Positions 9,789-44,223 of a DNA stretch of 64,000 bases are shown piece after piece. The stretch covers positions 13,781 to 77,780 of the forward strand of contig JBBSVJ010000001.1 in assembly GCA_038233665.1 (NCBI GenBank). The letters run 5' to 3'. Source of the DNA: Lysobacterales bacterium (GTDB lineage Bacteria; Pseudomonadota; Gammaproteobacteria; Xanthomonadales; Rhodanobacteraceae). A program made the translations under genes and the position numbers. Positions within the stretch are counted from its first letter, which is position 1. Each line of letters opens with the position of its first letter. The notes under the pieces were generated by a model. It did no database searches, had not been told where the DNA came from, and worked only from the letters and a program-made list of their open reading frames with translations.

Positions 9789-9851
9789 TCGCCACCATAC
9801 ACTGGTGGCCGCGTGAATTCGGCTCACGACAACCCACGCCAAGGAATCGAC

Positions 9852-11723
9852 ATGCTGCGAGCCGCCATAGGATTCGTCTTTTTCTTCATCCTGCTTGGTT
9901 TCAGCGGCAGGGCCGAGGCGGGTTGCCTGTCGCCACCACCGAGTTGTCCGGCAGGTACGGTATGCCAGTACGCTTTCGAGTGCCGCAATGACTGGCCGGA
10001 TCCGCGCATTCCTTTCCGCATCTACGTGCCAGAGGCTTGCCAGTTTGGCGGGCGTTGTCCGCTCATCGTTTTCCTGCACGGCCAAGGCGAAATCGGCACT
10101 GACAATCAGGCCCAGCTCGGCAACAACGCCAATGGTGCGATGAAACTCGTGCAGCCGGCGAGGCAGTCCATCGAGCCGATGATCCTGGTCGCGCCTCAGT
10201 GCTGCCATGAGGAAAATGGTCAGTGGAACGGTCAGCAGGATCGACTGATCAACATGCTTGAACAAATTCAGAAAGATTATTCTTACGATCCTCAGCGGAT
10301 CTATCTGACCGGTTTGTCCATGGGCGGAGGCGGCTTGCTGAGTTGGATGAGCACCTACAACAAGGTTTTTGCGGCCGTGGTGCCGCTTGCCCCGCATCAG
10401 GGTTACACAGCGGGCGATGCGGCTTGGGCGCAGACGCCTGCCTGGTTTTTCCACGCCGCCAACGACGGCACTGCGCCAGTTGGTAACTCGCGCAACCATG
10501 TCGCCGCACTGCGCGACGGTGGCGGTGATCCGATCTATACCGAATACGCGAGCGGCGGCCATGGGATCTGGACGCAAAGCTATTCGAGCGACCATCTATT
10601 CAACTGGATGATTGCCCAACGGCTGGGCCGCGAGATGATGCCGGTCGTTCCCGCGTTGCGCATCTTGAGCCCGAGTGCGGGTCCGCTGTGGACAACCTCG
10701 GCGAGCGCAATTGATTTGAACGGAAGCGCGTCAGCCGGCGTAGGCGCGATCAGTTGGTCGAGTCCAACAAACGGCGGCAACGTCAGTGGAACCAACGCAT
10801 GGTCGGTGAACGATTTGCCGCTCGTGACCGGCGACCAGCGCATCCGCGTCACGGGTCGCGGTGCCAGCGAATACCCCAGTCTTGGGGGCTGGACCGATGT
10901 TTCCGACAGCTTGCTCGTGCGCACGCCCGTGCAGAGCAACGCTGCGCCGCGCGTTTTTATTCTCGCTCCGACGCGTGTCCAATCCAGCGAACGGATTGAT
11001 CTTTACGCGCATGTTCTTGACGATGGTTTGCCCGCGCCCTCGGCGCTGTCGGTGAGCTGGTCGTTTGAGAGCGGACCCGCAGCGGCCCAGCTAAGCGTCG
11101 ATCAGGCGGATGATCGTCACGTCTGGATTCCGAATGCGCCGAATGGCAACTACCGCATTCGCGCAGTGGTCAGCGATGGGTCGTTACAGAGCGAATTTGC
11201 CGCGACACTGTTGGTCAGTGATGCCGCCTCGTTGGCTATAGCGATCAATGCCGGCGGCAGCGCGCTAACCGCGGCGGATGGCACGCAGTTCGAGGCCGAC
11301 CAGTATTTTACCAGCGGATCAACATCTTCCAGCGCATCGGGTGCGGCGGCGATTTACGACACGCCGGATGATGCGCTGTACCAGAGCTACCGCCAGGGCT
11401 ACAACAGTTGGGGCTACGATATTCCGGTCGCAAATGGCGACTATCTGGTTATCCTGCATTTTGCGGAAACCTATAACCCAGCCAGCGTTGAAGGCGGCCG
11501 CGTGGCTGATATCCAATTGCAGGATCAGCTGGTTCTAAGCCAATTCAGCGCCTATTCGCTGGTCGGTCAGCGCGCTGCGCTGAGCTTTGCCTTCAACGCC
11601 AACGTCAGCAATGGCCTCCTCAAGATTCGAGCCAATCGCAGCGGCACAACGGGTGAACGAGCACGAATCGACGCGATCGAGGTGTTGCGTCTGGATGAAA
11701 TTTTCAGCGACGGATTTGAGTAG
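9852..11723 (+). CDS. Secreted modular protein: alpha/beta-hydrolase (esterase-like) + Ig/PKD-like + malectin domain
   Basis: Signal peptide after the AAGGA SD. PLIVFLHGQGE, GLSMGG, HAANDG and GHGIW catalytic elements. Malectin-type AINAGG...FEADQYF...LYQSYR...VILHFAE. Ends in DEIFSDGFE. Confidence 0.82.
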   Translation: MLRAAIGFVFFFILLGFSGRAEAGCLSPPPSCPAGTVCQYAFECRNDWPDPRIPFRIYVPEACQFGGRCPLIVFLHGQGEIGTDNQAQLGNNANGAMKLVQPARQSIEPMILVAPQCCHEENGQWNGQQDRLINMLEQIQKDYSYDPQRIYLTGLSMGGGGLLSWMSTYNKVFAAVVPLAPHQGYTAGDAAWAQTPAWFFHAANDGTAPVGNSRNHVAALRDGGGDPIYTEYASGGHGIWTQSYSSDHLFNWMIAQRLGREMMPVVPALRILSPSAGPLWTTSASAIDLNGSASAGVGAISWSSPTNGGNVSGTNAWSVNDLPLVTGDQRIRVTGRGASEYPSLGGWTDVSDSLLVRTPVQSNAAPRVFILAPTRVQSSERIDLYAHVLDDGLPAPSALSVSWSFESGPAAAQLSVDQADDRHVWIPNAPNGNYRIRAVVSDGSLQSEFAATLLVSDAASLAIAINAGGSALTAADGTQFEADQYFTSGSTSSSASGAAAIYDTPDDALYQSYRQGYNSWGYDIPVANGDYLVILHFAETYNPASVEGGRVADIQLQDQLVLSQFSAYSLVGQRAALSFAFNANVSNGLLKIRANRSGTTGERARIDAIEVLRLDEIFSDGFE

Positions 11724-29381: not shown

Positions 29382-32300
29382 TCAAAATCTAAAAATACGC
29401 TCTATCGCCTTTTCGGCGGCCTCAAACGAGAAATGCTCGCGAACGTTTTCGAGTCCCTTGGCGGATAGCTTATTCCACAAAAATTCATCGTGGTAGAGCG
29501 CAACAATCGCGTCCGCGTAGGATTCCGCTGTCTCGGCAATCAGCACTTCCTCGCCGGATTTCACGTGCATGCCTTCGACCGCCATCGGCGTGGCGACCAC
29601 GGGTAAGCCATAGCTCATCGCCATGTTGACCTTGCCTTTTACTCCGGCGCCGTAGCGCAGCGGCGCAATCGAGATGCGCGCATCGTCCATGGCCGGGGCA
29701 ATATCCTCGACAAAGCCGTGGACGATGACATGGTCACTGGCCAGGGCATGGATCGCATCAGTGACTTTGCTGCCGATGACATGCAGACGCACATCGGGAA
29801 TCGCGCTCAACACCCGGGGCAGAATTTTGCCGACGAACCAGGTTACGGCATCGCTGTTAGGGGGATGCTGGAAGCCACCAACAAAAAGCAGGTCTCGACG
29901 CGCGGAAAACGGCTTGCGACAGCCGTAGATTTCGTGGACGTTGGACAAAACATCGACAGCCACGCCCGGCGCGTCACGGCTGAGGATCTCCTTCTCGACC
30001 GGACTGACCACAAGGGTCACATCGCATTCGCGCATGATGCCGATTTCCTGAACACGTGTTTTGGCGGAGATGCGCGTCAGATCATCACGCCCTTCAAGTT
30101 CGGCGGCGCGCAATTCGCGCAGATAGTGCAAATCGACCGTGTCGAAAATCAAGCGTGCTTTGCTTGCATAGAGGCGGGCCAGGCCGATGATCTCGGCGGC
30201 GACGTAGTGTCGAGAAAGAACGATGGCATCGAACTCCGAGCCGCGTTCGCGAAACAAGGTCGCCGGATGGTTGTATGGATGATGTAGAACCTCGATACCT
30301 AGTTCCTGCAGAGCGTTTGTATAGCGGTCGACCCGTGCCAGATTGCTCGGCATGAATGCAACGTGGCTGCCATTGCGGCGCAGGATGCGCATCAAATTGA
30401 CCATGCGCAACGAGCCTGAATCCTGATCAGGCATCGGTGTGACCGCATCAATTATCAAGATGCGATGGCGAGCACGGTGTGTGGCCGCAATGTGGATCGG
30501 GGTGCCGGGTGCCGGTTGCTTGCGCAATGCGTCCGACCACTTGTCGAGAAATTTCTGCTGGTTGATAACCTGGAAGCGCTTCATCCCGCTGGCGGTGTCG
30601 GTACCTGCGGTAATGCCTTCGAAATGGACAACGCGTGAGCGCGGTTCGTAGAAGACCTTGAAGCCGGCCGCGCGCACGCCAAAGGCAAGATCGGTGTCCT
30701 CGTAATACGCCGGTGCATAGCGCTGGTCGAAACGCCCAAGTCGCTCGAAAAACTCGCGACGCAACATGATCGCCGCGCCCGAGCAATAGTCGGCTTCGCG
30801 GCGGAACGCGAAACGGGTATCGTCGGGATCCTCAAAGCGGCCGTAGTTCCAGCCAGATCCATCGTTGAAAATAATCCCGCCTGCTTCCTGCAGTCGGCCA
30901 TCCGGATAGACCAGACGTGAGCCGACCAGCCCGGCATCGGGTTCTTCCTCGAAGCAGCGCAACAGTGCTTCGAGCCAGTCTTCGGTGACCACGGTATCGT
31001 TGTTGAGGAACAGAACGAACTCGCCTCGCGCGATTTCGGCGCCGGCATTGCAGGAGCCAACGAAGCCAATGTTTTCTGTATTGCGAATCGAGCGGATGCC
31101 GCCGATTTCGGCCAGCCGCGATGGCGTCGAATCGGTCGATAGATCATCGACGACGATGATTTCAAATGTGCTTGCCGCAGCATGCTCGGCGATCGAGCGC
31201 AGACAGGCGGCGGTGTAGGCGAATTTGTTGTGCACCGGGATGACGATCGACACACGTGGCTGCTCGCTGCCCGGCACGGAAAACGGTGAAAAATCCTCGC
31301 TCGGTGCGGCGAACGTTTCGCGCGTACGGATCGGCTTTACGCCGCGCAGTTCCCGCAGCAGCCGCGTCCAGGTTCCGCCGAGACCATGCTGGACCAGACT
31401 CCCGCGCACACGCCTGAACTGGGCAAGCAGGCGCGATTTGCGAAAGGCGAGTGAGGCGCGTAGATCGCGCAGTGTTGTGGCGATATTTCGCATCGGTTCG
31501 GTGAGCCGCCAGGATCGGCTGGCCATCATGGTTTCATAAGCGGGTTGGAACGGTCGCAAGGCTTCGACTTCGCTATCGAGACGTTGCGCCCACGTGGTGC
31601 GCGTTTCGAGCTCGGTCTTGGTTGCAGCCAACTCGCGATCAAGGCCGTGACCCCAATCGCCGCGACGCTGACTCTCCTCCCGCAGCAACGCCAACTCGAT
31701 CTGCAACTCCCCAAGCCGTTCCTCGCTGCGAGCAAGTTTCTGGCTGCGTGCGGCAAGCAGTTGTGACTCGACGTCGGCTGATCGAAGCGGGTAGCGCAGC
31801 TCGGCCACCGGTGCCAAGCGGAGTGCTTTCGCATAGGCGCGGGCCATCTCGGCAAGATCCGGCTCACGTCGGCTGGCGAGATGATCGCGCACGATTTGCA
31901 GGCGTTCTCGCTGATCGGCCAAGGCGCGGATCTTGGCAATCACATCCTCTGCGATGGCTTCGACATGGAAGCCATCGACGCCGTCTTCGATGCGCTCGAC
32001 AAAAGCGCCAAGTCGCGTCGCGATCACCGGCACGCCAAGGTCGCGCAATTCCGACAAGGTGTAGCCGAAGGTTTCCGCCACAGTCGGCAGCAACACCGCG
32101 GCATCCGCGTTCAATCCGGCGAGCAGTTCGGGCAGATTCTCTCGGGAATAGTCGAGCACGATGTGCACGCCATCCATGCCGAAGAACGAGCGGCCGTCGG
32201 CACCTGCGCCGAGCAGAAATACATCGGCGAATTCGCGCAACGAGGGCAATACTTGTTCGAGCAACTCGGCGCCTTTGCCGCGTCTCACGCGACCGGGAAA

Positions 32301-33896
32301 AACCAGACGCATACGTTCGCGCGCTGGCGGTGTGGTCGCGCGCGCGGACACATTCGGCCACGCCGACAGGCCATGCGCGATAATGGTTGACGGCAAGTCG
32401 GAAAGTTCAGGTGCGAGGCGAAAATCATTGTCGAGTGCCGACTGGCTCGGTGCGATCAATCTCACATTGGCATCGAGCAGGTGCTGAACCGTTGCATCGC
32501 GCAGGGCTTTCCAATGACCGGCATCGGTATTGGCAAACTCAGGGTCGCGACCGAGCCCGGCGAGATCGGTTGCGCGTTGGGCATCGTCGAATCGCAGCGT
32601 GTCGTCGCTGAAGTTCCGATGCAGCAGCGGCCATAGCGGGTAGTGATCGTGCACGACACGAGTTGTCGGCAATCCGGTTTGCAGTACATCGAGACTGTGC
32701 CCGATCAACGAGGAAACGATGATTTCATCGACGCTGTGTTCGAAGAGCAGTTCGCTTAGCAGGCGACGATAGCCCGCGTTGGAAACATCGGTATCGGCAA
32801 TCGCGCAAGGCAACGCGATACGGCGCAGCGGTGCTCCGATCAAGCTTCCATCATGCAAGTCCAACCACTCACCGTGACGACTGCGCTGGTGGCTGCCGCC
32901 GGATTTCAGGATCAGATGGTCGGCGTCGGCAAATGCGCTGCAGAAATCACGCACCCAGCGCTCGGCACCACCGCCCCAGCCGTGCAATACATGCAGGATG
33001 ACCGGCCGCGCAGCGAGACCTGTCTTGCACGGTGTGAGTGGCGTAGCGATGGCTTCGGCGACTTGCTCGCGCAACGTCGCTAGTGGCGAAGGTGGCAGAG
33101 GATCGCGCGGATCAACGCTTTCGTTGGCGCCTTGAAGCAGGCAGCCATGCGCGCCGACATAGCAGTGATCGAGCAAAACCATGCGCAAACCCGTTCCGCC
33201 ATCGCGTAAGCGTTGACCATGCCAAGCCGATGCCAGCGGCGACAGCGCAGTGACATCAATCAGTTGGCGTCGTGAATACGCAAAGCAAAGTGCATCGATG
33301 CGCTCGACGCTAGCGTCACTTGTCACGCCGCCAGGGAGGGGAGAACGGGCAGAATCCAGATTGTCGAGTGGCCCGGCACCCAGCGTGTCAGCTTGTTCGA
33401 TGGCGAGCAGCAGGCGTGGCAGGGCCATTGAGGGCAATTCAGCGTCACTGCGTACGATCAGCAGATCGCGGCCGGGCAGGTGCCTGGACAGCGCCACTGC
33501 CAGTGCAGAGGTCGACTCCTCGCTGACTTCAGCGAGACGAAGTGCGTCGGCATATCCATGTAGCGATACCGACGCGCCAATCAAGATGAGATCTGTCGCA
33601 TCAGAAAGTTGCGCCATGACCTCGGCCAGCCACGACTCAGTGCAAGCCTCCGCGCCGTGCACGCAAAGGCAGATGGATGGCGACAAGGTTTTCTGCACGA
33701 CGGTCCTGAACTCAAACGGACGCGGATTATCGGCGATGCTGGCCGCTACTGCCACGGCGAGGGTCTGCGCGTGATTTGCAGCTTCTATTGGTCGAGGTAG
33801 AAAAATCAGTGGAGTGAAGTCGGATTTTTGATGGATCACACGTTCATGGAGGATCGATCGACCAAAAGAAACTGTGCGGTAAAGGCTGGTTTGCAA
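29382..33896 (-). CDS. Large multidomain glycosyltransferase (GT4-like + coiled coil + GT2 + GT4-like)
   Basis: LHVLHGWGGGAERW, ETFGYTLSE, VSIVIPVHNK/VVDD/FLNNDT and GAGVKGKVNMAMSYG. The true start is uncertain and may be up to about 70 codons later. Confidence 0.88.
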   Translation of the reverse strand: MQTSLYRTVSFGRSILHERVIHQKSDFTPLIFLPRPIEAANHAQTLAVAVAASIADNPRPFEFRTVVQKTLSPSICLCVHGAEACTESWLAEVMAQLSDATDLILIGASVSLHGYADALRLAEVSEESTSALAVALSRHLPGRDLLIVRSDAELPSMALPRLLLAIEQADTLGAGPLDNLDSARSPLPGGVTSDASVERIDALCFAYSRRQLIDVTALSPLASAWHGQRLRDGGTGLRMVLLDHCYVGAHGCLLQGANESVDPRDPLPPSPLATLREQVAEAIATPLTPCKTGLAARPVILHVLHGWGGGAERWVRDFCSAFADADHLILKSGGSHQRSRHGEWLDLHDGSLIGAPLRRIALPCAIADTDVSNAGYRRLLSELLFEHSVDEIIVSSLIGHSLDVLQTGLPTTRVVHDHYPLWPLLHRNFSDDTLRFDDAQRATDLAGLGRDPEFANTDAGHWKALRDATVQHLLDANVRLIAPSQSALDNDFRLAPELSDLPSTIIAHGLSAWPNVSARATTPPARERMRLVFPGRVRRGKGAELLEQVLPSLREFADVFLLGAGADGRSFFGMDGVHIVLDYSRENLPELLAGLNADAAVLLPTVAETFGYTLSELRDLGVPVIATRLGAFVERIEDGVDGFHVEAIAEDVIAKIRALADQRERLQIVRDHLASRREPDLAEMARAYAKALRLAPVAELRYPLRSADVESQLLAARSQKLARSEERLGELQIELALLREESQRRGDWGHGLDRELAATKTELETRTTWAQRLDSEVEALRPFQPAYETMMASRSWRLTEPMRNIATTLRDLRASLAFRKSRLLAQFRRVRGSLVQHGLGGTWTRLLRELRGVKPIRTRETFAAPSEDFSPFSVPGSEQPRVSIVIPVHNKFAYTAACLRSIAEHAAASTFEIIVVDDLSTDSTPSRLAEIGGIRSIRNTENIGFVGSCNAGAEIARGEFVLFLNNDTVVTEDWLEALLRCFEEEPDAGLVGSRLVYPDGRLQEAGGIIFNDGSGWNYGRFEDPDDTRFAFRREADYCSGAAIMLRREFFERLGRFDQRYAPAYYEDTDLAFGVRAAGFKVFYEPRSRVVHFEGITAGTDTASGMKRFQVINQQKFLDKWSDALRKQPAPGTPIHIAATHRARHRILIIDAVTPMPDQDSGSLRMVNLMRILRRNGSHVAFMPSNLARVDRYTNALQELGIEVLHHPYNHPATLFRERGSEFDAIVLSRHYVAAEIIGLARLYASKARLIFDTVDLHYLRELRAAELEGRDDLTRISAKTRVQEIGIMRECDVTLVVSPVEKEILSRDAPGVAVDVLSNVHEIYGCRKPFSARRDLLFVGGFQHPPNSDAVTWFVGKILPRVLSAIPDVRLHVIGSKVTDAIHALASDHVIVHGFVEDIAPAMDDARISIAPLRYGAGVKGKVNMAMSYGLPVVATPMAVEGMHVKSGEEVLIAETAESYADAIVALYHDEFLWNKLSAKGLENVREHFSFEAAEKAIERIFRF

Positions 33897-36945: not shown

Positions 36946-38880
36946 ATGCATGAATCGGTCGAGGAGTTGCTTGGAAGCAACGGTCCGTTTGCCCGCGAAG
37001 TGCCGGGCTTCGTGCCGCGTGAAGTGCAGCAGCTCATGGCTCGCGCCGTGGCCGACGCCATTGATGATCGGCACGCGCTGATCGCCGAGGCCGGCACCGG
37101 CACCGGCAAGACCTTCGCCTATCTCGTACCCGCAATGATGTCGGGCAAGCGCGTGATCATCTCGACCGGCACCAAGGCCTTGCAGGATCAGTTGTTCCAT
37201 CGCGATCTGCCGCGCGTGCGCAGCGTGCTCGGTGCGCGCTTGTCGGCGGCCCTGCTCAAGGGTAGGGCGAACTATCTTTGTCTGCATCGGCTTGATCAAG
37301 CGCGCAGTGAAGGGCGCTTCGTCAATCGCGAACAGATCAGTCAGTTGCAATCGATCCAAGCTTGGTCGACAGCCACAAAAAGTGGTGATCGGGCCGAACT
37401 TGCCGAATTGCCTGAGGATTCGCCATTGTGGCCGCGGGTCACCTCGACCACCGAGAACTGCCTCGGCAGCGATTGCCCGTTCTTCAGCGATTGCTTCGTG
37501 GTCAAGGCGCGTCGTGCCGCGCAGGAAGCCGACATTGTTGTCGTCAATCATCATTTGCTGTTTGCCGATCTGGCGATCAAGCAGGAGGGTTTCGGCGAGA
37601 TCCTGCCTGGCGCACATGCGTTCATTCTTGACGAGGCGCATCAGGTTCCCGAGTTGGCGGGGCAGTTTTTTTCGATCACCTTGACCGCGCGCCAGTTGAC
37701 CGAACTGGCCAGCGACACCCTGGCTGAGTGCGCAGCGGCGAGTGGCGCGCTGGCGACCTTGCAGCCGCTGATTGAAGCGATTACGCCGTCGGTGCGGCGC
37801 CTGCGCCTGGTTCTCGATCGATTCCCAGCGAAGGCGGCCTTTGTTGTCATCGAGCGCGACGCCGAGGTCGAGCGAGAGCTTGACGGCCTGCGCAGTGCCC
37901 TTGACGAACTCGCCAGCGGACTTGATGCCCATGCCGAACGCAGTCGCGGGCTCGCCGCCGTTCACGAGCGCGCCATGGCGATGAGTGCGCGGCTCACCCA
38001 GCTCTGTGATTCCGGTGCGCGTGATTCGGTGCATTGGTATGAATTGACGGCGCATGGGTTCGCTCTGCACGCGACTCCGCTGGATCTGTCGCAAGCGCTC
38101 AGCGAGTTGCGCGAGCAAAGTCATGCGGCCTGGATTTTCACCTCGGCGACCTTGTCGATTGCCGGGCGCTTTGATCATTTTGCTCGCCAGCTCGGTCTGC
38201 AGGATCCCGCTTCGCTGTGTCTCGACAGTCCATTTGACTATGCCCACCAGGCGCTGGCGTATCTTCCGAAAGGTCTGCCTGAGCCGAGCGCACGCGACTA
38301 CACGGATAAAGTGATCGAGGCTGTGCTGCCCGTGCTCGAAGCCTCCGCCGGGCGTGCGTTTCTGCTATTCACTTCGCATCGCGCCTTGCGCCGTGCTGCA
38401 GAGTTGCTCGAAGGTCGCGTGCCGTATCCCTTGTTCGTGCAAGGTTCGGCACCACGCCATCAATTGCTCAAGGGGTTTCGCGAATCCGGCAATGGCGTGC
38501 TGCTCGGCGCGGCAAGTTTCTGGGAGGGCGTCGATGTCGCCGGTGAAGCGCTCAGCGTGGTCGTCATCGACAAGCTGCCGTTCGCCGCTCCTGATGATCC
38601 GGTGCTCGTTGCGCGACTGGAGGTGTTAAGAGAATCGGGGCTCAATCCGTTTGTGGAGTGGCAGATTCCCAACGCCGTGATCGCGCTCAAGCAGGGCACA
38701 GGGCGCTTGATTCGCGACATCAACGATCGCGGTGTCCTTGTCCTCTGTGATCCGCGTCTGACCAGCAAGGGCTACGGGCGGATTTTTCTCGCCAGCTTGC
38801 CGGCGATGCCAAGAACGAAAGAGTTTGCTGCAGTCGCAACATTTTTTTCGGTCGACAGTGAGTCTCCGTCGCAGGGTTGA
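36946..38880 (+). CDS. yoaA: ATP-dependent DNA helicase, DinG/YoaA family
   Basis: EAGTGTGKT, Fe-S Cys residues (NYLC, C..SDCP...DC), DEAH, FWEGVD and QGTGRLIR. Confidence 0.92.
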   Translation: MHESVEELLGSNGPFAREVPGFVPREVQQLMARAVADAIDDRHALIAEAGTGTGKTFAYLVPAMMSGKRVIISTGTKALQDQLFHRDLPRVRSVLGARLSAALLKGRANYLCLHRLDQARSEGRFVNREQISQLQSIQAWSTATKSGDRAELAELPEDSPLWPRVTSTTENCLGSDCPFFSDCFVVKARRAAQEADIVVVNHHLLFADLAIKQEGFGEILPGAHAFILDEAHQVPELAGQFFSITLTARQLTELASDTLAECAAASGALATLQPLIEAITPSVRRLRLVLDRFPAKAAFVVIERDAEVERELDGLRSALDELASGLDAHAERSRGLAAVHERAMAMSARLTQLCDSGARDSVHWYELTAHGFALHATPLDLSQALSELREQSHAAWIFTSATLSIAGRFDHFARQLGLQDPASLCLDSPFDYAHQALAYLPKGLPEPSARDYTDKVIEAVLPVLEASAGRAFLLFTSHRALRRAAELLEGRVPYPLFVQGSAPRHQLLKGFRESGNGVLLGAASFWEGVDVAGEALSVVVIDKLPFAAPDDPVLVARLEVLRESGLNPFVEWQIPNAVIALKQGTGRLIRDINDRGVLVLCDPRLTSKGYGRIFLASLPAMPRTKEFAAVATFFSVDSESPSQG

Positions 38881-39106
38881 GGGTGGTCAGCGCCTTCAGG
38901 TGGAGTGCGTGAATATCGTGCGTCTTCAGTCCACTCATGCTGAACAAACTGAATACGCTGAACCAAGCCTTGTGCATTTGCCCGAGTAAGAGTCCGATGC
39001 TATAAAACAAGGTCTGTCGATCCGGACTTCAGCAATGAAGCGTCGACGGCGAGTGCAAGTACCTCCCTATTTTATACCTTTTAGATTTTCCAACTGGAGT
39101 CTGGTA

Positions 39107-41458
39107 ATGGCAATGGCAACATCATTTCGAGTGACGGCTCTCGCGGCCGTGATCGGCGCGTGTCTTGGTGGCAATGCGTTGATTAACAATGCGGATGCCG
39201 CCAGCCCCAGCAAACAAACGGCAGCGTCAATCAACACCTACATCATCAAGTTCACCGATGCCGGTGCGCTTCACTACCAGGGTGGCGTTGCCAGCCTGCG
39301 TGCAACGGCACCGGATCCGACGGCCCGCGCGCGAAAGTTTGACGCAACCAGTGCTGATTCAAAAAACTATCGCGCCTACTTGCGTCAGCGCCAGCAAGAT
39401 TCCATCGCGACCATGTCCTCTTTGATTGGTCATCCGCTGGAAGTGACTCACACCTATGAGGTTACTGCTAGCGGCATTGCCGCCAAATTGACCTCCGCAG
39501 AAGCGGCAGCAATTGCCAGCGCGCCGGGTGTTGAATCGGTTAGTCAGGAAGAGATCCAGCATCTTGATACCTATCGTGGTCCGACCTTCATCGGTGCTGA
39601 CACGGTCTGGAAGTCACCGACGACAGGTTCCATTACCGGTCGCGGCAAGGGTGTGGTGGTCGGTGTACTCGATAGTGGTGTGAATTCGACACATCCCTCG
39701 TTCGCCGATGATGCGATGTGCGGATTTGGCCCTGGCGACCACAAGCTGCTCAGCGCACGAGATTGCGACACATCAACCGCAGGCGTCTGCAACGGTCCGG
39801 ATCCAGAGGCCGGCAGCTCCGGCCATGGTGTGCATACAGCCAGCACTGCAGCCGGAAACTCGGTTACCAACGCCGCATCGCCATCGCCAAACTTGCCTGC
39901 GCCGTATACGCAGATGTCCGGCGTAGCGCCATGCGCTTCCGTGCGCACTTACAAGGTTTGCCCGGGTGATACCTGCGGTGGAGCGGCGATTCAGGCCGGT
40001 ATCGAGAACGCGATCATCGACGGTGTGGACGTCATCAACTACTCGATTTCAGGTGGTACCACTCCATGGGGTGATGCCGATCGAACCTTCCTCGATGCGG
40101 TGAATGCCGATATCGTCGTTGCCGCTTCGGCAGGCAATACCCGCGCGGAAACTCCCAGCCCCATTGGCAATGTCAATCATCGTGGCCCTTGGATGATGAC
40201 GGTCGCCGCTTCGACCCAGGATGTGAATCTGGGTTCGGGTCTGTCAGCAACCGGTCCCGGTACGCCGCCGGCCAACACGCAGAACCTTCTGGCAGCTCTC
40301 GGCAGCAATATCACCGCACCAGTTCCGTTCACGGATCTTCCCATCCGTGTTTCTTCCACCAACTTGATTGGTTGCACGGCAGGCGGCGCGTTTCCGGCTG
40401 GATTCTTCAGCGGTGCGGTTGCCCTGATTCAACGCGGAACTTGTCCGTTTACAGAGAAGGTCGGCAACGCAGCGGCTGCCGGTGCGGTACAGGTGATCAT
40501 CTACAACAACACCTTCGGCACCATCAACATGAACACCGACGGTGCGACTATCCCGGCTTACAGCATTACCCAGCCCGCGGGTGTCGCGATGAACGCTTTC
40601 ATCACGGCTAACGGAGCGACTCCGACCACGGCCAGTTTGAGTGCGCGAATTGCCGGACCGGTGCAGGGTGATGTGTTGGCAGACTTCAGCTTCCGCGGCC
40701 CGATTGCGGGCAACTTGGCCGACTTGACCAAACCGGATATCACCGGACCTGGCGTCAATATCTACGCGGCTGGGCGTGCCGCCGACGGCAACTACTTCAC
40801 GATTAGCGGTACCTCGATGTCGAGCCCACATCTGGCGGGATCGGCGGCCCTGGTGCGTGCGGTCAATCCGGACTGGACACCAACCGAAGTCAAATCCGCG
40901 CTGTTGCTGACGGCCAAGCTGACCGGAACGCAAGAAAACCAAAGCACACCCTGGAACGTGGATGATATCGGCAGCGGTCGTGTGGATCTGACAGCTGCGC
41001 CGCATGCGGGCTTCGTGATGGATGAGACATTCGCCAACTTCCTGGCGGCCAATCCATCGGGTGGTTCGATCAACGTCAAGGAATTGAACCTTCCTTCCGT
41101 TCGCGTCACCGGACTTTCGGCCGTCTCACCGGTCTACACGTGGGTGCGTACCCTGCGTAACACGGCTTCCGGTCCGACCACCTGGAATGTCAGCGTGGAT
41201 CAGCCGCCTGGCGTGGTGGTAACGGTCAGCCCGAGCACGTTCGCGTTTACCGGTGCCGGTGTTCAAGACCCCGAGCATATCTTTACCGGTAATTTCGAAA
41301 GCACGGCAGCACCAGGTGCGGCAGAGACGCAGACGATCTTGATTACTGCGACAACGACTGCAGCGACAACGGGTATTGCGTTCGGTGAGGTCAAGTTCAC
41401 CGAGAGCAATAATGACGCTCCGCCGGCACATATCACCGTAGCGGTGAAGCGCCAGTAA
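39107..41458 (+). CDS. Secreted S8 subtilase with I9 propeptide, PA domain and C-terminal FN3-like domain
   Basis: VGVLDSG (Asp), HGVHTAST (His) and SGTSMSSPH (Ser). PA motif ALIQRGTCPF..K. Confidence 0.93.
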   Translation: MAMATSFRVTALAAVIGACLGGNALINNADAASPSKQTAASINTYIIKFTDAGALHYQGGVASLRATAPDPTARARKFDATSADSKNYRAYLRQRQQDSIATMSSLIGHPLEVTHTYEVTASGIAAKLTSAEAAAIASAPGVESVSQEEIQHLDTYRGPTFIGADTVWKSPTTGSITGRGKGVVVGVLDSGVNSTHPSFADDAMCGFGPGDHKLLSARDCDTSTAGVCNGPDPEAGSSGHGVHTASTAAGNSVTNAASPSPNLPAPYTQMSGVAPCASVRTYKVCPGDTCGGAAIQAGIENAIIDGVDVINYSISGGTTPWGDADRTFLDAVNADIVVAASAGNTRAETPSPIGNVNHRGPWMMTVAASTQDVNLGSGLSATGPGTPPANTQNLLAALGSNITAPVPFTDLPIRVSSTNLIGCTAGGAFPAGFFSGAVALIQRGTCPFTEKVGNAAAAGAVQVIIYNNTFGTINMNTDGATIPAYSITQPAGVAMNAFITANGATPTTASLSARIAGPVQGDVLADFSFRGPIAGNLADLTKPDITGPGVNIYAAGRAADGNYFTISGTSMSSPHLAGSAALVRAVNPDWTPTEVKSALLLTAKLTGTQENQSTPWNVDDIGSGRVDLTAAPHAGFVMDETFANFLAANPSGGSINVKELNLPSVRVTGLSAVSPVYTWVRTLRNTASGPTTWNVSVDQPPGVVVTVSPSTFAFTGAGVQDPEHIFTGNFESTAAPGAAETQTILITATTTAATTGIAFGEVKFTESNNDAPPAHITVAVKRQ

Positions 41459-41512: not shown

Positions 41513-41775
41513 GTCTGCAGATCGGATTTTCTGAAGAAGAACTACCGCGATTAACTGCATTTCTAACGAATAAGCGGGTTGGGCCATTGCGCTTAGTTGC
41601 TGCTTGAAGCAACGATCCCATCGGGTTTGCAGTCGGCTAATCCAGATTTGAGCTGAAGATTCGGCTCGACGAAAGCCTGGATTGTCTGGGTCGCCACAGG
41701 CGAACTGGCCAACAGCGCAAGGGCGATCTGATCGATGTGCTAGTTTGCCCGGATGATTATTCAGGGAATTTGCGC

Positions 41776-44223
41776 ATGACTGCAGGATCAAGAGTTGCCT
41801 TTGCCTTTCTCATCGTGTTGCTTAGCCTGAATGGGCACGCTGCTACCCGCCATGCTGGCGAGTGCATCGATGGTGTTGCCGAGGGTTATGCCTGCAGCCA
41901 TGTTGACCTGCTTGGCCATCTCGACCTGCTCCAACTCGGCACGACGGTCTCGGGCAATGGCAACGATATGTGGGGCTGGACCGATCCCGATTCCGGCAAG
42001 GAATATGCGCTGATCGGCCTCAACAACGGCACGGCTTTCGTTGATATTTCTGATCCGCAAAATCCCCTGCGCCTGGGCAACCTTCCAACCCACAGCGTCA
42101 ACTCACTCTGGCGTGACATCAAGACCTTTGGTCATTACGCGCTGATCGTTTCCGAAGCGCAGAACCACGGCATGCAGATTTTCGACCTGCACCATCTGCG
42201 TGATGTGATCACGCCGCCAATCACCTTTTCCGAGGATGCGTGGTATGGCAACTTCGGGCGTGCGCATGACATTGTCGTCAACGAGTCCTCCGGTTTCGTC
42301 TACGCAGTCGGATCGCGTCAGGGTACGCAACAGTGCAATGCAGGCCTGCACATGATCAACATGCAGAATCCGCTGGTTCCGGCATTTGTCGGATGTTTCA
42401 GCGCGGATGGCTACACCCATGATGCCCAGTGCATCAACTACGACGGCCCCGATGCCGATTATCTCGGCCATGAAGTCTGTTTCGCCGCAAACGAGGACAC
42501 GTTGACGATTGTCGATGTGAGCAACAAGGCAAGTCCGGTACAGATTTCACGCACCGGTTATAGCGGCTCCGGTTACGCGCACCAAGGCTGGCTCAGTGAC
42601 GATCGACGCTACATGCTGTTCGATGACGAGCTCGACGAACAGAACGACGGACACAACACGCGAACTTATGTCTGGGATGTGCAGGATCTCGACGCTCCTC
42701 ACGTCGATTTCACCTATGACGGCCCAACCAAAGCCATTGACCACAACCTCTATATCCATGAAGGCTACGCTTACGAATCGAATTACCAAGCCGGTTTGCG
42801 CATTCTCGATCTGTCCAAGATCGACAGTGACGTTTTGACTGAAGCTGCGTTTTTCGATACCCATCCGGAGAGTGACAGTGCCGATTTCGAAGGCGCATGG
42901 AGCAACTATCCGTTCTATGCGAGTGGTGTGGTCGGCGTCAGTGATATCAACCGCGGATTGTTTTTGTTGCAGCCTGAGTTGTGTCGAGCGCCGCTACCGG
43001 CAAGTGGCCTGAGCGCGGTTGGCAACGGCGACCATCGGATCGATCTCAGCTGGAGCCCGACGACAACGCCAGGCGCCAGCTACTCGATTGATCGGATTGT
43101 TGGCGGATGCAGCGGCAGCGCGGTCGAGACCATCACCAGCGGATTGAGTGGTACGAGTTTCAGCGATACCTCGGCCTCGGGAACGGTGACTTACGGCTAT
43201 CGTGTTCGCAGTGTGGCCGCATCGGGTGAATGCTCGGCGGCAGCCAGTGCTTGCGTCGAAGCAAGCACGACGGGAACCTGTACCGCAGCGCCGGCGTTCG
43301 ATGGGATTTTCAGCCTGCAGTCTGCCGCAACTTCATCGTGTGCTCTCGATCTGAGCTGGCAATCCGCGAGCTCGTATTGCGGTGCCGGTGCGAGCTTCAG
43401 CGTTTACCGATCGCAGGATGCGGGATTTACGCCGGCTCCGGCCGATCAGGTGAGTTCGTCGGTTTCCGGCCTTTCATGGACGGATACAGCGATCGCCGCC
43501 GGTGTCGACTACACCTATGTCGTTCGCGCTACCGATACCGGCAATGGCAGCATGGATGGCAACAGCGTGCGCTTGAGCGCTCGTGCGACGGGTCCGATCA
43601 GTGATGGTGATTATTTCAGCGGCGCGGAAACCGGAACGGCCATGCTTTCTGGCGTCGGAGAAACCCCGCTTGTGAGGCAACCGACGGCACCGGCGCACGT
43701 GGCTTGGGAAATTGTCGACAGCCAGGCGCACAGCGGAGCACGCAGCTATTTCTCCGGCTACAACAACTCTGAATGTCTGTCGATCGGGAGTGGGCCAATC
43801 TCGCTGAGCGCGGGACAAAACTCGATGATGGAATTCTGGACCCGCTACGGCATCGAAGCCGGTTACGACGGCGGCGTCGTGCAGATATCGAGCAATGGTG
43901 GACAGGATTGGTCGACGATTGCGCCGATTGGTGGCTATCCGGCGAGCTTCAACGGCAACAACACGAACGCCTGTGGTCTACCGACCAACAGCGGTAATTA
44001 TTCCGGCACCAACGCTGCGAACCTGGATTGGTCTGCACAGCAATTTGATCTATCCGCCTATGCCGGACAAACGATTCAGTTGCGCTGGCGCTTCAGCACC
44101 GATGGCGGAGTGACCGCAGACGGTTGGTGGATCGACGATATCCGTATCACCCACGCCCAAGTGCCCGGCATGTGCATGTCGAGCAATGATGTGATCTTTG
44201 TTGATGGATTCGAGATGTTGTGA
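41776..44223 (+). CDS. Choice-of-anchor B family secreted protein with FN3-like and C-terminal beta-sandwich domains
   Basis: Signal peptide, GNDMWGWTDPDSGKEYALIG, WRDIK, YTHDAQC, HQGW, HNLY and WSNYPFY. Ends in NDVIFVDGFEML. Confidence 0.85.
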   Translation: MTAGSRVAFAFLIVLLSLNGHAATRHAGECIDGVAEGYACSHVDLLGHLDLLQLGTTVSGNGNDMWGWTDPDSGKEYALIGLNNGTAFVDISDPQNPLRLGNLPTHSVNSLWRDIKTFGHYALIVSEAQNHGMQIFDLHHLRDVITPPITFSEDAWYGNFGRAHDIVVNESSGFVYAVGSRQGTQQCNAGLHMINMQNPLVPAFVGCFSADGYTHDAQCINYDGPDADYLGHEVCFAANEDTLTIVDVSNKASPVQISRTGYSGSGYAHQGWLSDDRRYMLFDDELDEQNDGHNTRTYVWDVQDLDAPHVDFTYDGPTKAIDHNLYIHEGYAYESNYQAGLRILDLSKIDSDVLTEAAFFDTHPESDSADFEGAWSNYPFYASGVVGVSDINRGLFLLQPELCRAPLPASGLSAVGNGDHRIDLSWSPTTTPGASYSIDRIVGGCSGSAVETITSGLSGTSFSDTSASGTVTYGYRVRSVAASGECSAAASACVEASTTGTCTAAPAFDGIFSLQSAATSSCALDLSWQSASSYCGAGASFSVYRSQDAGFTPAPADQVSSSVSGLSWTDTAIAAGVDYTYVVRATDTGNGSMDGNSVRLSARATGPISDGDYFSGAETGTAMLSGVGETPLVRQPTAPAHVAWEIVDSQAHSGARSYFSGYNNSECLSIGSGPISLSAGQNSMMEFWTRYGIEAGYDGGVVQISSNGGQDWSTIAPIGGYPASFNGNNTNACGLPTNSGNYSGTNAANLDWSAQQFDLSAYAGQTIQLRWRFSTDGGVTADGWWIDDIRITHAQVPGMCMSSNDVIFVDGFEML

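Follow-up and report, generated by a model that had tools for sequence, protein, structure and literature searches.

Previous work showed that flexible Fn3 loops of Pel3 are determinants of secretion through a type II secretion system (T2SS; PMC7949064), and that the Ig-fold of the VesB protease contains information for secretion that can be transferred and is dependent on GspC's PDZ domain (PMC12369372). Here we describe a short peptide tag in a similar setting, i.e., an exposed, flexible loop within the C-terminal Fn3/Ig-like domain of a secreted hydrolase, in this case a subtilase of a Dokdonella-like soil bacterium of the Lysobacterales. The window, by which we mean the whole stretch of DNA analysed, comprises 64,000 nucleotides of contig JBBSVJ010000001.1 (assembly GCA_038233665.1, positions 13,781 to 77,780), and its relevant features are collected in Table 1. 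The tag has the consensus D/E-x-[IVL]-F-x-[DN]-G-F-[ED] in this lineage. Jointly, we think it probable, although well short of certain, that the segment E-H-I-F-T-G-N-F-E of the window's subtilase is a real, selected and loop-displayed copy of this tag that has diverged, and that the tag serves as a recognition handle that works independently of its position and is read in trans once the protein has folded.

The subtilase is a secreted S8/PA protease with a hydrophobic, signal-peptide-like N-terminus. Pfam assigned Inhibitor_I9 to residues 68-177, Peptidase_S8 (PF00082, 143 bits) to 204-632, PA (PF02225) to 444-518 and fn3_6 (PF17766) to 683-742, and the residues of the DSG, HGxH and GTSM catalytic motifs were invariant among 41 aligned homologues. 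An AlphaFold2 model, made from a 41-sequence alignment (mean predicted local distance difference test score, pLDDT, 79.7), gave 7eox and the plant subtilases cucumisin and SBT3 as its best Foldseek matches. The protein is an S8 subtilase with a PA insert and an fn3_6 domain, in a cucumisin/SBT3-like arrangement; its nearest relatives belong to Dokdonella and other Lysobacterales, and that of the cultured Dokdonella immobilis is 74% identical.

A sequence-only reading of this DNA had taken about 20 residues containing EHIFTGNFE to be a loop inserted in the FN3-like domain. The string is present exactly as claimed, and the protein reads ...VTVSPSTFAFTGAG VQDPEHIFTGNFESTAAPGA AETQTILITAT... around the insert. 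The Pfam match to fn3_6 ended at residue 742 (position 60 of the 99 in the profile), immediately ahead of the segment, and a phmmer alignment of the subtilase with cucumisin stopped at the same point. When the 20 residues VQDPEHIFTGNFESTAAPGA were removed in silico, the fn3_6 match lengthened from profile positions 1-61 (43.6 bits) to 1-90 (52.1 bits). Alignment with homologous subtilases showed a clean gap at this position in P0046, P0049, P0081, P0119, L016, and L018; the segment is not a conserved core strand. In the AlphaFold2 model, residues 715-740 (numbering of the 783-aa product) formed a coil of low confidence (pLDDT ~58-66) between strands 711-714 and 741-750, which lie in blocks at pLDDT 87-95. 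These results confirm that the segment is an insertion interrupting the fn3_6 domain, and the model predicts it to be exposed. Two other explanations of the segment were discarded. The idea that it is what remains of a former C-terminus was rejected, as the strands beyond the insert have homologous counterparts in homologues that lack it, and an EF-hand or DxDxDG calcium site was dropped upon inspection because the spacing of the acidic residues is unsuitable.

To place this segment, we surveyed the tag in the same genome (assembly of 3.68 Mb in 371 contigs), using an ORF-based gene set. The pattern D-x-[IVL]-F-x-[DN]-G-F-[ED] occurred within 0-8 residues of the stop codon in ~60 open reading frames (ORFs), and a tag matrix was built from 59 of the genome's own terminal tags. 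A scan of the crude gene set with a cut-off of 16 bits gave 56 copies at termini and 8 at internal sites, compared with 0.6 expected from shuffled proteins. All 64 tagged proteins carried exactly one copy, and most of them begin, as judged by eye, with a signal peptide. From 0 to 8 variable residues separate a terminal copy from the end of its protein, and therefore a free carboxylate is not part of the signal; neither a hydrophobic helix nor a basic tail follows the motif. Internal copies were located in the linker between the two domains of an esterase-GH5 protein, straight after the signal peptide in two proteins, and in a subtilase paralogue (C5:16775-22039) that bears a 29.8-bit tag inside its PA-like insert. 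The arms of the tag are rich in Pro, Ala, Gly, and Thr. A DG or NG dipeptide occupies the turn in 48 of the 64 copies (DG 25, NG 23), and GD, GN or GT is found there in the window's clade. Since established beta-turn statistics show a preference for all of these pairs in type I' and II' hairpin turns of two residues, we infer that the tag is shaped as a small beta-hairpin showing Ile and Phe between acidic residues.

No model covered the tag when Pfam and NCBIfam were scanned with the tag peptides and the tagged proteins, and the same scans gave no hit to the T9SS (type IX secretion system) C-terminal domain (TIGR04183 / PF18962). NF053834 ("ultrashort_CTERM") had no match in the genome at E <= 1, nor did the tag peptides give any NCBIfam hit. 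Topic searches of the literature found no description of the tag, and a search for its letters returned only unrelated words. Eight tag-bearing genes are clustered on one contig (C29:1616-22904). One protein of this cluster was scanned and is a confirmed choice-of-anchor Q protein, and its three similar neighbours have the ending ...CDVGA[YF]E[YF]G...IFxNGFD. Also in the cluster are an esterase-tag-GH5 cellulase and a protein whose C-terminal region is MAM-like.

The subtilase family itself showed that the tag moves. When 113 full-length homologues were grouped according to where the best tag lies, 108 of them proved to have one. The fn3 loop site, ~157 residues after the catalytic-Ser motif, was used in 59; an inserted loop that closely follows the PA domain and precedes that motif by ~75 residues, in 24; and the position directly after the last fn3 strand in the rest, where further domains follow in 21 and the tag is the true C-terminus in 4. 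The paralogue with a tag inside its PA-like insert adds a fourth site. The five homologues without a tag above 7 bits comprise three with degenerate loop copies and two that are tag-less. Canonical copies of 20-31 bits occur in two different surface loops of the family as well as in interdomain linkers. Loop and terminal copies are mutually exclusive in this family: homologues tagged at one site have no insert at the other sites, and a weak second hit (7-11 bits) was seen in only three. On a tree made by a quick maximum-likelihood method with the tag masked, at least 15 changes of tag site were needed. The terminal tags do not result from truncated contigs. Those of P0081 and P0119 are true termini, since the contigs continue with intergenic DNA and further genes downstream, and those of L016 and L018 lie deep within contigs of 0.35 and 1.4 Mb. 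P0119, a homologue on a related metagenome contig that has a C-terminal tag and no loop insert, occupies the same chromosomal slot as the window's subtilase, as both follow a DinG-like helicase (Table 1). P0091 and P0099 are the only homologues without a trace of the tag; P0099 has a dockerin (PF00404) and P0091 ends in a similar C-terminal repeat, which suggests a functional swap between tag and docking module.

The copy in the window is the only tag hit in its subtilase. It keeps the I-F ... F-[ED] core and the acidic residue two positions before the Ile, and it differs from the consensus by E for D at -2 and by G-N for N-G. Its score on the tag matrix was 8.1 bits, below the 14-32 bits of terminal copies, and it lacks the [DN]-G dipeptide. 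At 8 bits or more, ~30 hits are expected per shuffled proteome versus 50 internal hits observed, so that the motif score alone fails as a judge of this segment. DLLFVGGFQ, which lies in a 1504-aa ORF on the minus strand (window 29382-33896) and which we take to be a chance hit, reaches 9.5 bits; scores under 10 bits are therefore unspecific. The identification relies instead on homology. In the same alignment columns, orthologues carry canonical tags, e.g., GPDKIFANGFE in P0024 (30.2 bits), NERIFADGFD in P0038 (26.5 bits), and others in P0014 (25.7 bits) and P0004 (20.0 bits), and D. immobilis has DADQIFTGDFE (18.1 bits). Among 23 close orthologues, 61-83% identical to the window's subtilase, the motif columns are strongly conserved (acidic residue at -2, 100%; first F, 100%; G, 91%; second F, 96%; E/D, 100%), whereas the flanking loop columns are hypervariable, with up to nine different residues. 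Since the segment is positionally homologous to canonical copies and its motif columns are conserved in a hypervariable loop, we identify it as a tag. It is a weakened variant of uncertain activity.

These placements bear on the mechanism. Flexible arms would hold the tag, whether it lies at an end of the protein, in a linker or in a surface loop, and after Sec export and folding of the protein its one copy would be read in trans with no cut being made. Cleavage or transpeptidation at the loop positions is unlikely; a cut there would split the fn3 fold or, at the other loop site, part the catalytic Ser from the Asp and His. Taken with the missing helix and basic tail, this appears to exclude a sortase-like transpeptidation signal in practice. 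More generally, relocation with a single copy kept speaks against mechanisms that depend on a free end or cut the chain, and points to a reader of the folded protein. Two further claims of the sequence-only reading can be judged here. Its proposal that the tag needs no free C-terminus is borne out by canonical copies in loops, in linkers and after signal peptides, and by the 0-8 residues that trail the terminal ones. Its preference for a portable binding peptide over a transpeptidation signal stands as to portability and as to the lack of a sortase-type signal (no helix or basic tail, and a cut would break the fold), whereas the word "binding" goes further than these data; recognition by a secretion machine and modification of a side chain are alternatives to it.

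On the contig of the window, ~2.5 kb upstream of its start, lies a candidate for the reader; there, a DEAD-box helicase gene precedes gspC, gspD, and gspE. The GspC encoded at C1:6602-7531 matched T2SSC with 92.5 bits and gave PDZ-like matches just below the cut-off; its orthologue in the related genome G095 matched PDZ_2 with 31.6 bits, above the Pfam cut-off. The same gene order and helicase are found in the relatives G052 and G095. A DNA pattern for the canonical tag, which by its strictness misses variant tags, was run on 151 genomes of the order. The tag was present in 104 of them, with up to 133 copies, and the reversed-pattern control gave approximately zero; full-length GspC orthologues were present in 103. 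GspC was found in 69 of the 71 genomes with at least 10 tags, both exceptions being incomplete metagenome-assembled genomes, and was absent from 38 of the 47 tag-less genomes (Fisher's exact test, 2e-14, ignoring phylogeny). Within families f1 and f2 the match was perfect (7/7 versus 0/29), and it extends to two genomes of one genus, of which G095 has both and G079 neither, and to the sole tag-bearing f2 genome. The adjacent GspD is distributed like GspC. The gspC-gspD-gspE cluster is absent from tag-less Rhodanobacteraceae and Xanthomonadaceae genomes, and since tag-less genomes retain only distant secretins, the cluster represents an additional T2SS. Subtilase homologues follow the same division: all seven are tagged in the tag-rich G070 and none in the tag-less G079 and G034. 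Genus g18 at first seemed to have GspC without tags, an artefact of the strict DNA pattern, as g18 uses F-x-D-R-F-E. This variant (F-x-D-R-F-E-x-x-P-stop, with Arg for Gly) occurs in G006, G047, G082, G090, and G098 of family f7, and the GspC of g18 genomes is 28-36% identical to that of the present genome, which may reflect co-evolution of tag and reader.

The leading candidate for the reader is, tentatively, this PDZ-type T2SS, whose cargo the tag would label, perhaps by serving as a PDZ ligand of the internal type. A more specific version, in which the PDZ domain of the dedicated GspC would read the 9-residue hairpin on folded periplasmic proteins, at an end or in a loop, and 40-130 hydrolases per genome would leave through this second T2SS, is in our view doubtful, although a PDZ domain that accepts both an internal hairpin and a C-terminal peptide would explain why the tag is indifferent to position. 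Several observations weigh against these proposals and against the broader view of a handle read in trans. By itself, the tag likeness of the window copy is no better than chance, and with 8.1 bits and a reversed turn dipeptide the copy may bind weakly or not at all. The AlphaFold2 model gave no defined hairpin for the loop tag. Genomes of family f8 have 2-9 genuine tags each, and no GspC orthologue could be detected in them; conversely, family f6 and G085 have GspC and no tag was found in them. The T2SS link is a correlation, and one that would also be expected if the tagged proteins were mere cargo lost together with the system. Finally, related proteins have surface anchors at the place of the tag, and this is as compatible with retention after secretion as with targeting.

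This last point leads to the most serious alternative, namely that the tag docks enzymes at the cell surface after secretion by binding an outer-membrane protein, lipopolysaccharide or a matrix component non-covalently, and that it is linked to the T2SS only because tagged proteins are the cargo of that system. The choice-of-anchor B/Q and M36/MAM families place PEP-CTERM, GlyGly-CTERM, T9SS or LPXTG anchors in the slot taken here by the tag, and two tag-less subtilase homologues end in dockerin-like repeats (PF00404 in P0099). Position independence and exposure of the tag fit docking equally, and family f8 is tagged without a PDZ-type GspC. Yet no receptor candidate was found, nor is there a conserved neighbour gene beside the gsp cluster: in two relatives, the genes next to gspC-gspD-gspE were only housekeeping ones (DEAD helicase, amino-acid permease, gspF, ftsEX). 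Nine residues with two Phe also make a small interface for stable anchoring. Docking is a possible explanation, if one that we would not bet on.

It is improbable, by comparison with the handle read in trans, that the loop motif of the window's clade is a decaying, non-functional remnant of an ancestral working tag, or a loop of purely local structural use. A relic would account for the chance-range 8.1 bits, for the reversed G-N/G-D turn common to the close clade and for the three relatives under 7 bits (P0005, P0020, and P0034); what it does not explain is that both F and the two acidic positions are 96-100% kept across 23 orthologues while the flanks vary, which is unlike neutral decay, and that no compensating terminal tag has arisen in the clade. 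Very unlikely, in turn, is a sequon, in which the D or N side chain would be modified (hydroxylation, glycan or lipid) wherever it is exposed. Bacterial glycosylation sequons are similarly position independent and lie in flexible, exposed segments, and D and N are about equally frequent at one position of the tag (DG 25, NG 23); however, the window's clade and genus g18 have G, T or R there, so that no single modifiable residue is retained, and no modifying enzyme was identified. It is scarcely credible that the motif is an intrinsic structural element of its carrier, such as a strand that caps it or a metal site, with no partner in trans: despite its likeness to the F-x-E/D-x-F-E start of MAM-like/choice-of-anchor J domains (e.g., FSENFDSY in P0060), AlphaFold2 leaves the loop copy as an undocked coil at pLDDT ~60, dozens of unrelated folds bear the same peptide, each protein only a single time, whether at an end, in a linker or in a loop, and its presence or absence is genome-wide.

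Two further secreted proteins encoded in the window, unrelated to each other, end in the tag, an esterase/PHB-depolymerase-like protein and the choice-of-anchor B protein that follows the subtilase. With regard to the MAM-like domain of the latter (window 43700-44223), the tag resembles the first strand, F-x-[ED]-x-F-[ED], of MAM-like/choice-of-anchor J domains as seen in P0060 and its relatives. In P0060 such a strand (FSENFDSY...GGWKGW) starts eight residues past the tag, and this may hint at the evolutionary origin of the tag.

Table 1. Features of the window and of the adjoining part of its contig (window positions unless marked C1).
Feature	Position	Strand	Basis or remark
Esterase/PHB-depolymerase-like protein with malectin domain	9813..11723	+	Ends ...DEIFSDGFE*; tag 11694-11720
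DinG-like helicase directly upstream of subtilase	36946..38880	+	Synteny anchor; 70% identical to helicase upstream of P0119
Subtilase ORF	39035..41458	+	Longest ORF 807 aa; database product 783 aa, start 39107
Subtilase layout: signal peptide, I9 propeptide, S8 catalytic domain with PA insert, fn3_6	39035..41458	+	Pfam
fn3_6 (Ig-like) C-terminal domain, interrupted by insert	41081..41455	+	Pfam; AlphaFold2 strands 664-714 and 741-782 (783-aa numbering)
20-residue loop insertion VQDPEHIFTGNFESTAAPGA	41261..41320	+	Homologue gap, Pfam deletion test, AlphaFold2 coil
Diverged tag copy E-H-I-F-T-G-N-F-E	41273..41299	+	IFTGNFE alone 41279-41299; 52 residues before stop
Choice-of-anchor B protein with MAM-like domain, after subtilase across 278-bp gap	41737..44223	+	TIGR04312, 497.8 bits; ends ...NDVIFVDGFEML*; tag 44188-44214
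gspC(PDZ)-gspD-gspE cluster, preceded by DEAD-box helicase	C1:6602-11291		Additional T2SS; ~2.5 kb upstream of window start, same contig

The tag is, to judge from our searches, an undescribed peptide carried by dozens of secreted enzymes per genome in most Lysobacterales/Xanthomonadales families. The subtilase family amounts to a natural experiment in which a single copy changed place between two surface loops and the C-terminus on at least 15 occasions, with exactly one copy kept. Together with the co-occurrence of tag and PDZ-type GspC, this turns a vague "sorting tag" into a concrete hypothesis on substrate choice by the T2SS, an old open question; if true, the tag would be the first T2SS signal that is defined by its sequence and can be transferred. 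A cassette of 9-20 residues that is active in loops and at ends could serve export or surface display.

Among the systems with which the tag may be compared, the T9SS C-terminal domain is a folded unit of 70-100 residues as opposed to nine, and NF053834, although it also models a very short C-terminal motif (10 positions), describes a different one. The tripartite C-terminal signals, i.e., LPXTG/sortase, PEP-CTERM/exosortase, GlyGly-CTERM/rhombosortase, and MYXO-CTERM/myxosortase (10.1101/2023.06.07.544157), resemble the tag in being short, lineage-restricted signatures on many unrelated secreted proteins and in occupying the same slot in choice-of-anchor families. Unlike them, the tag has neither a transmembrane helix nor a basic tail, is trailed by 0-8 residues, and occurs in loops, in linkers and after signal peptides, where, at the loop sites, cleavage would break the carrier. 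Dockerin-cohesin pairs are likewise built on a portable module found on many hydrolases, and dockerin-like repeats replace the tag in two homologues; a dockerin, however, is a folded, calcium-binding module of ~60 residues. In the nNOS-syntrophin complex, an internal beta-finger serves as PDZ ligand, its first strand mimicking a C-terminal peptide and a tight turn replacing the free carboxylate. This is a single, eukaryotic case, and binding of the tag to a PDZ domain is conjecture only. E-H-I-F-T-G-N-F resembles the nNOS beta-finger, E-T-T-F-T-G-D-G, which may be a coincidence.

The closest parallels are Pel3/PelI of Pectobacterium and Dickeya and VesB of Vibrio cholerae, the latter with the PDZ domain of EpsC. 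In addition to the setting described at the outset, these would share with the tag, as interpreted here, recognition on a folded protein, a link to a PDZ-type GspC and transferable information, and VesB, like the window's subtilase, is a serine protease. Dependence on the T2SS is correlative only for the tag, unlike for Pel3/PelI and VesB. The signals of these proteins are composite and protein-specific and have no sequence motif in common, whereas the tag is one 9-residue linear motif, present on 40-130 unrelated proteins per genome and at their ends as well as within them.

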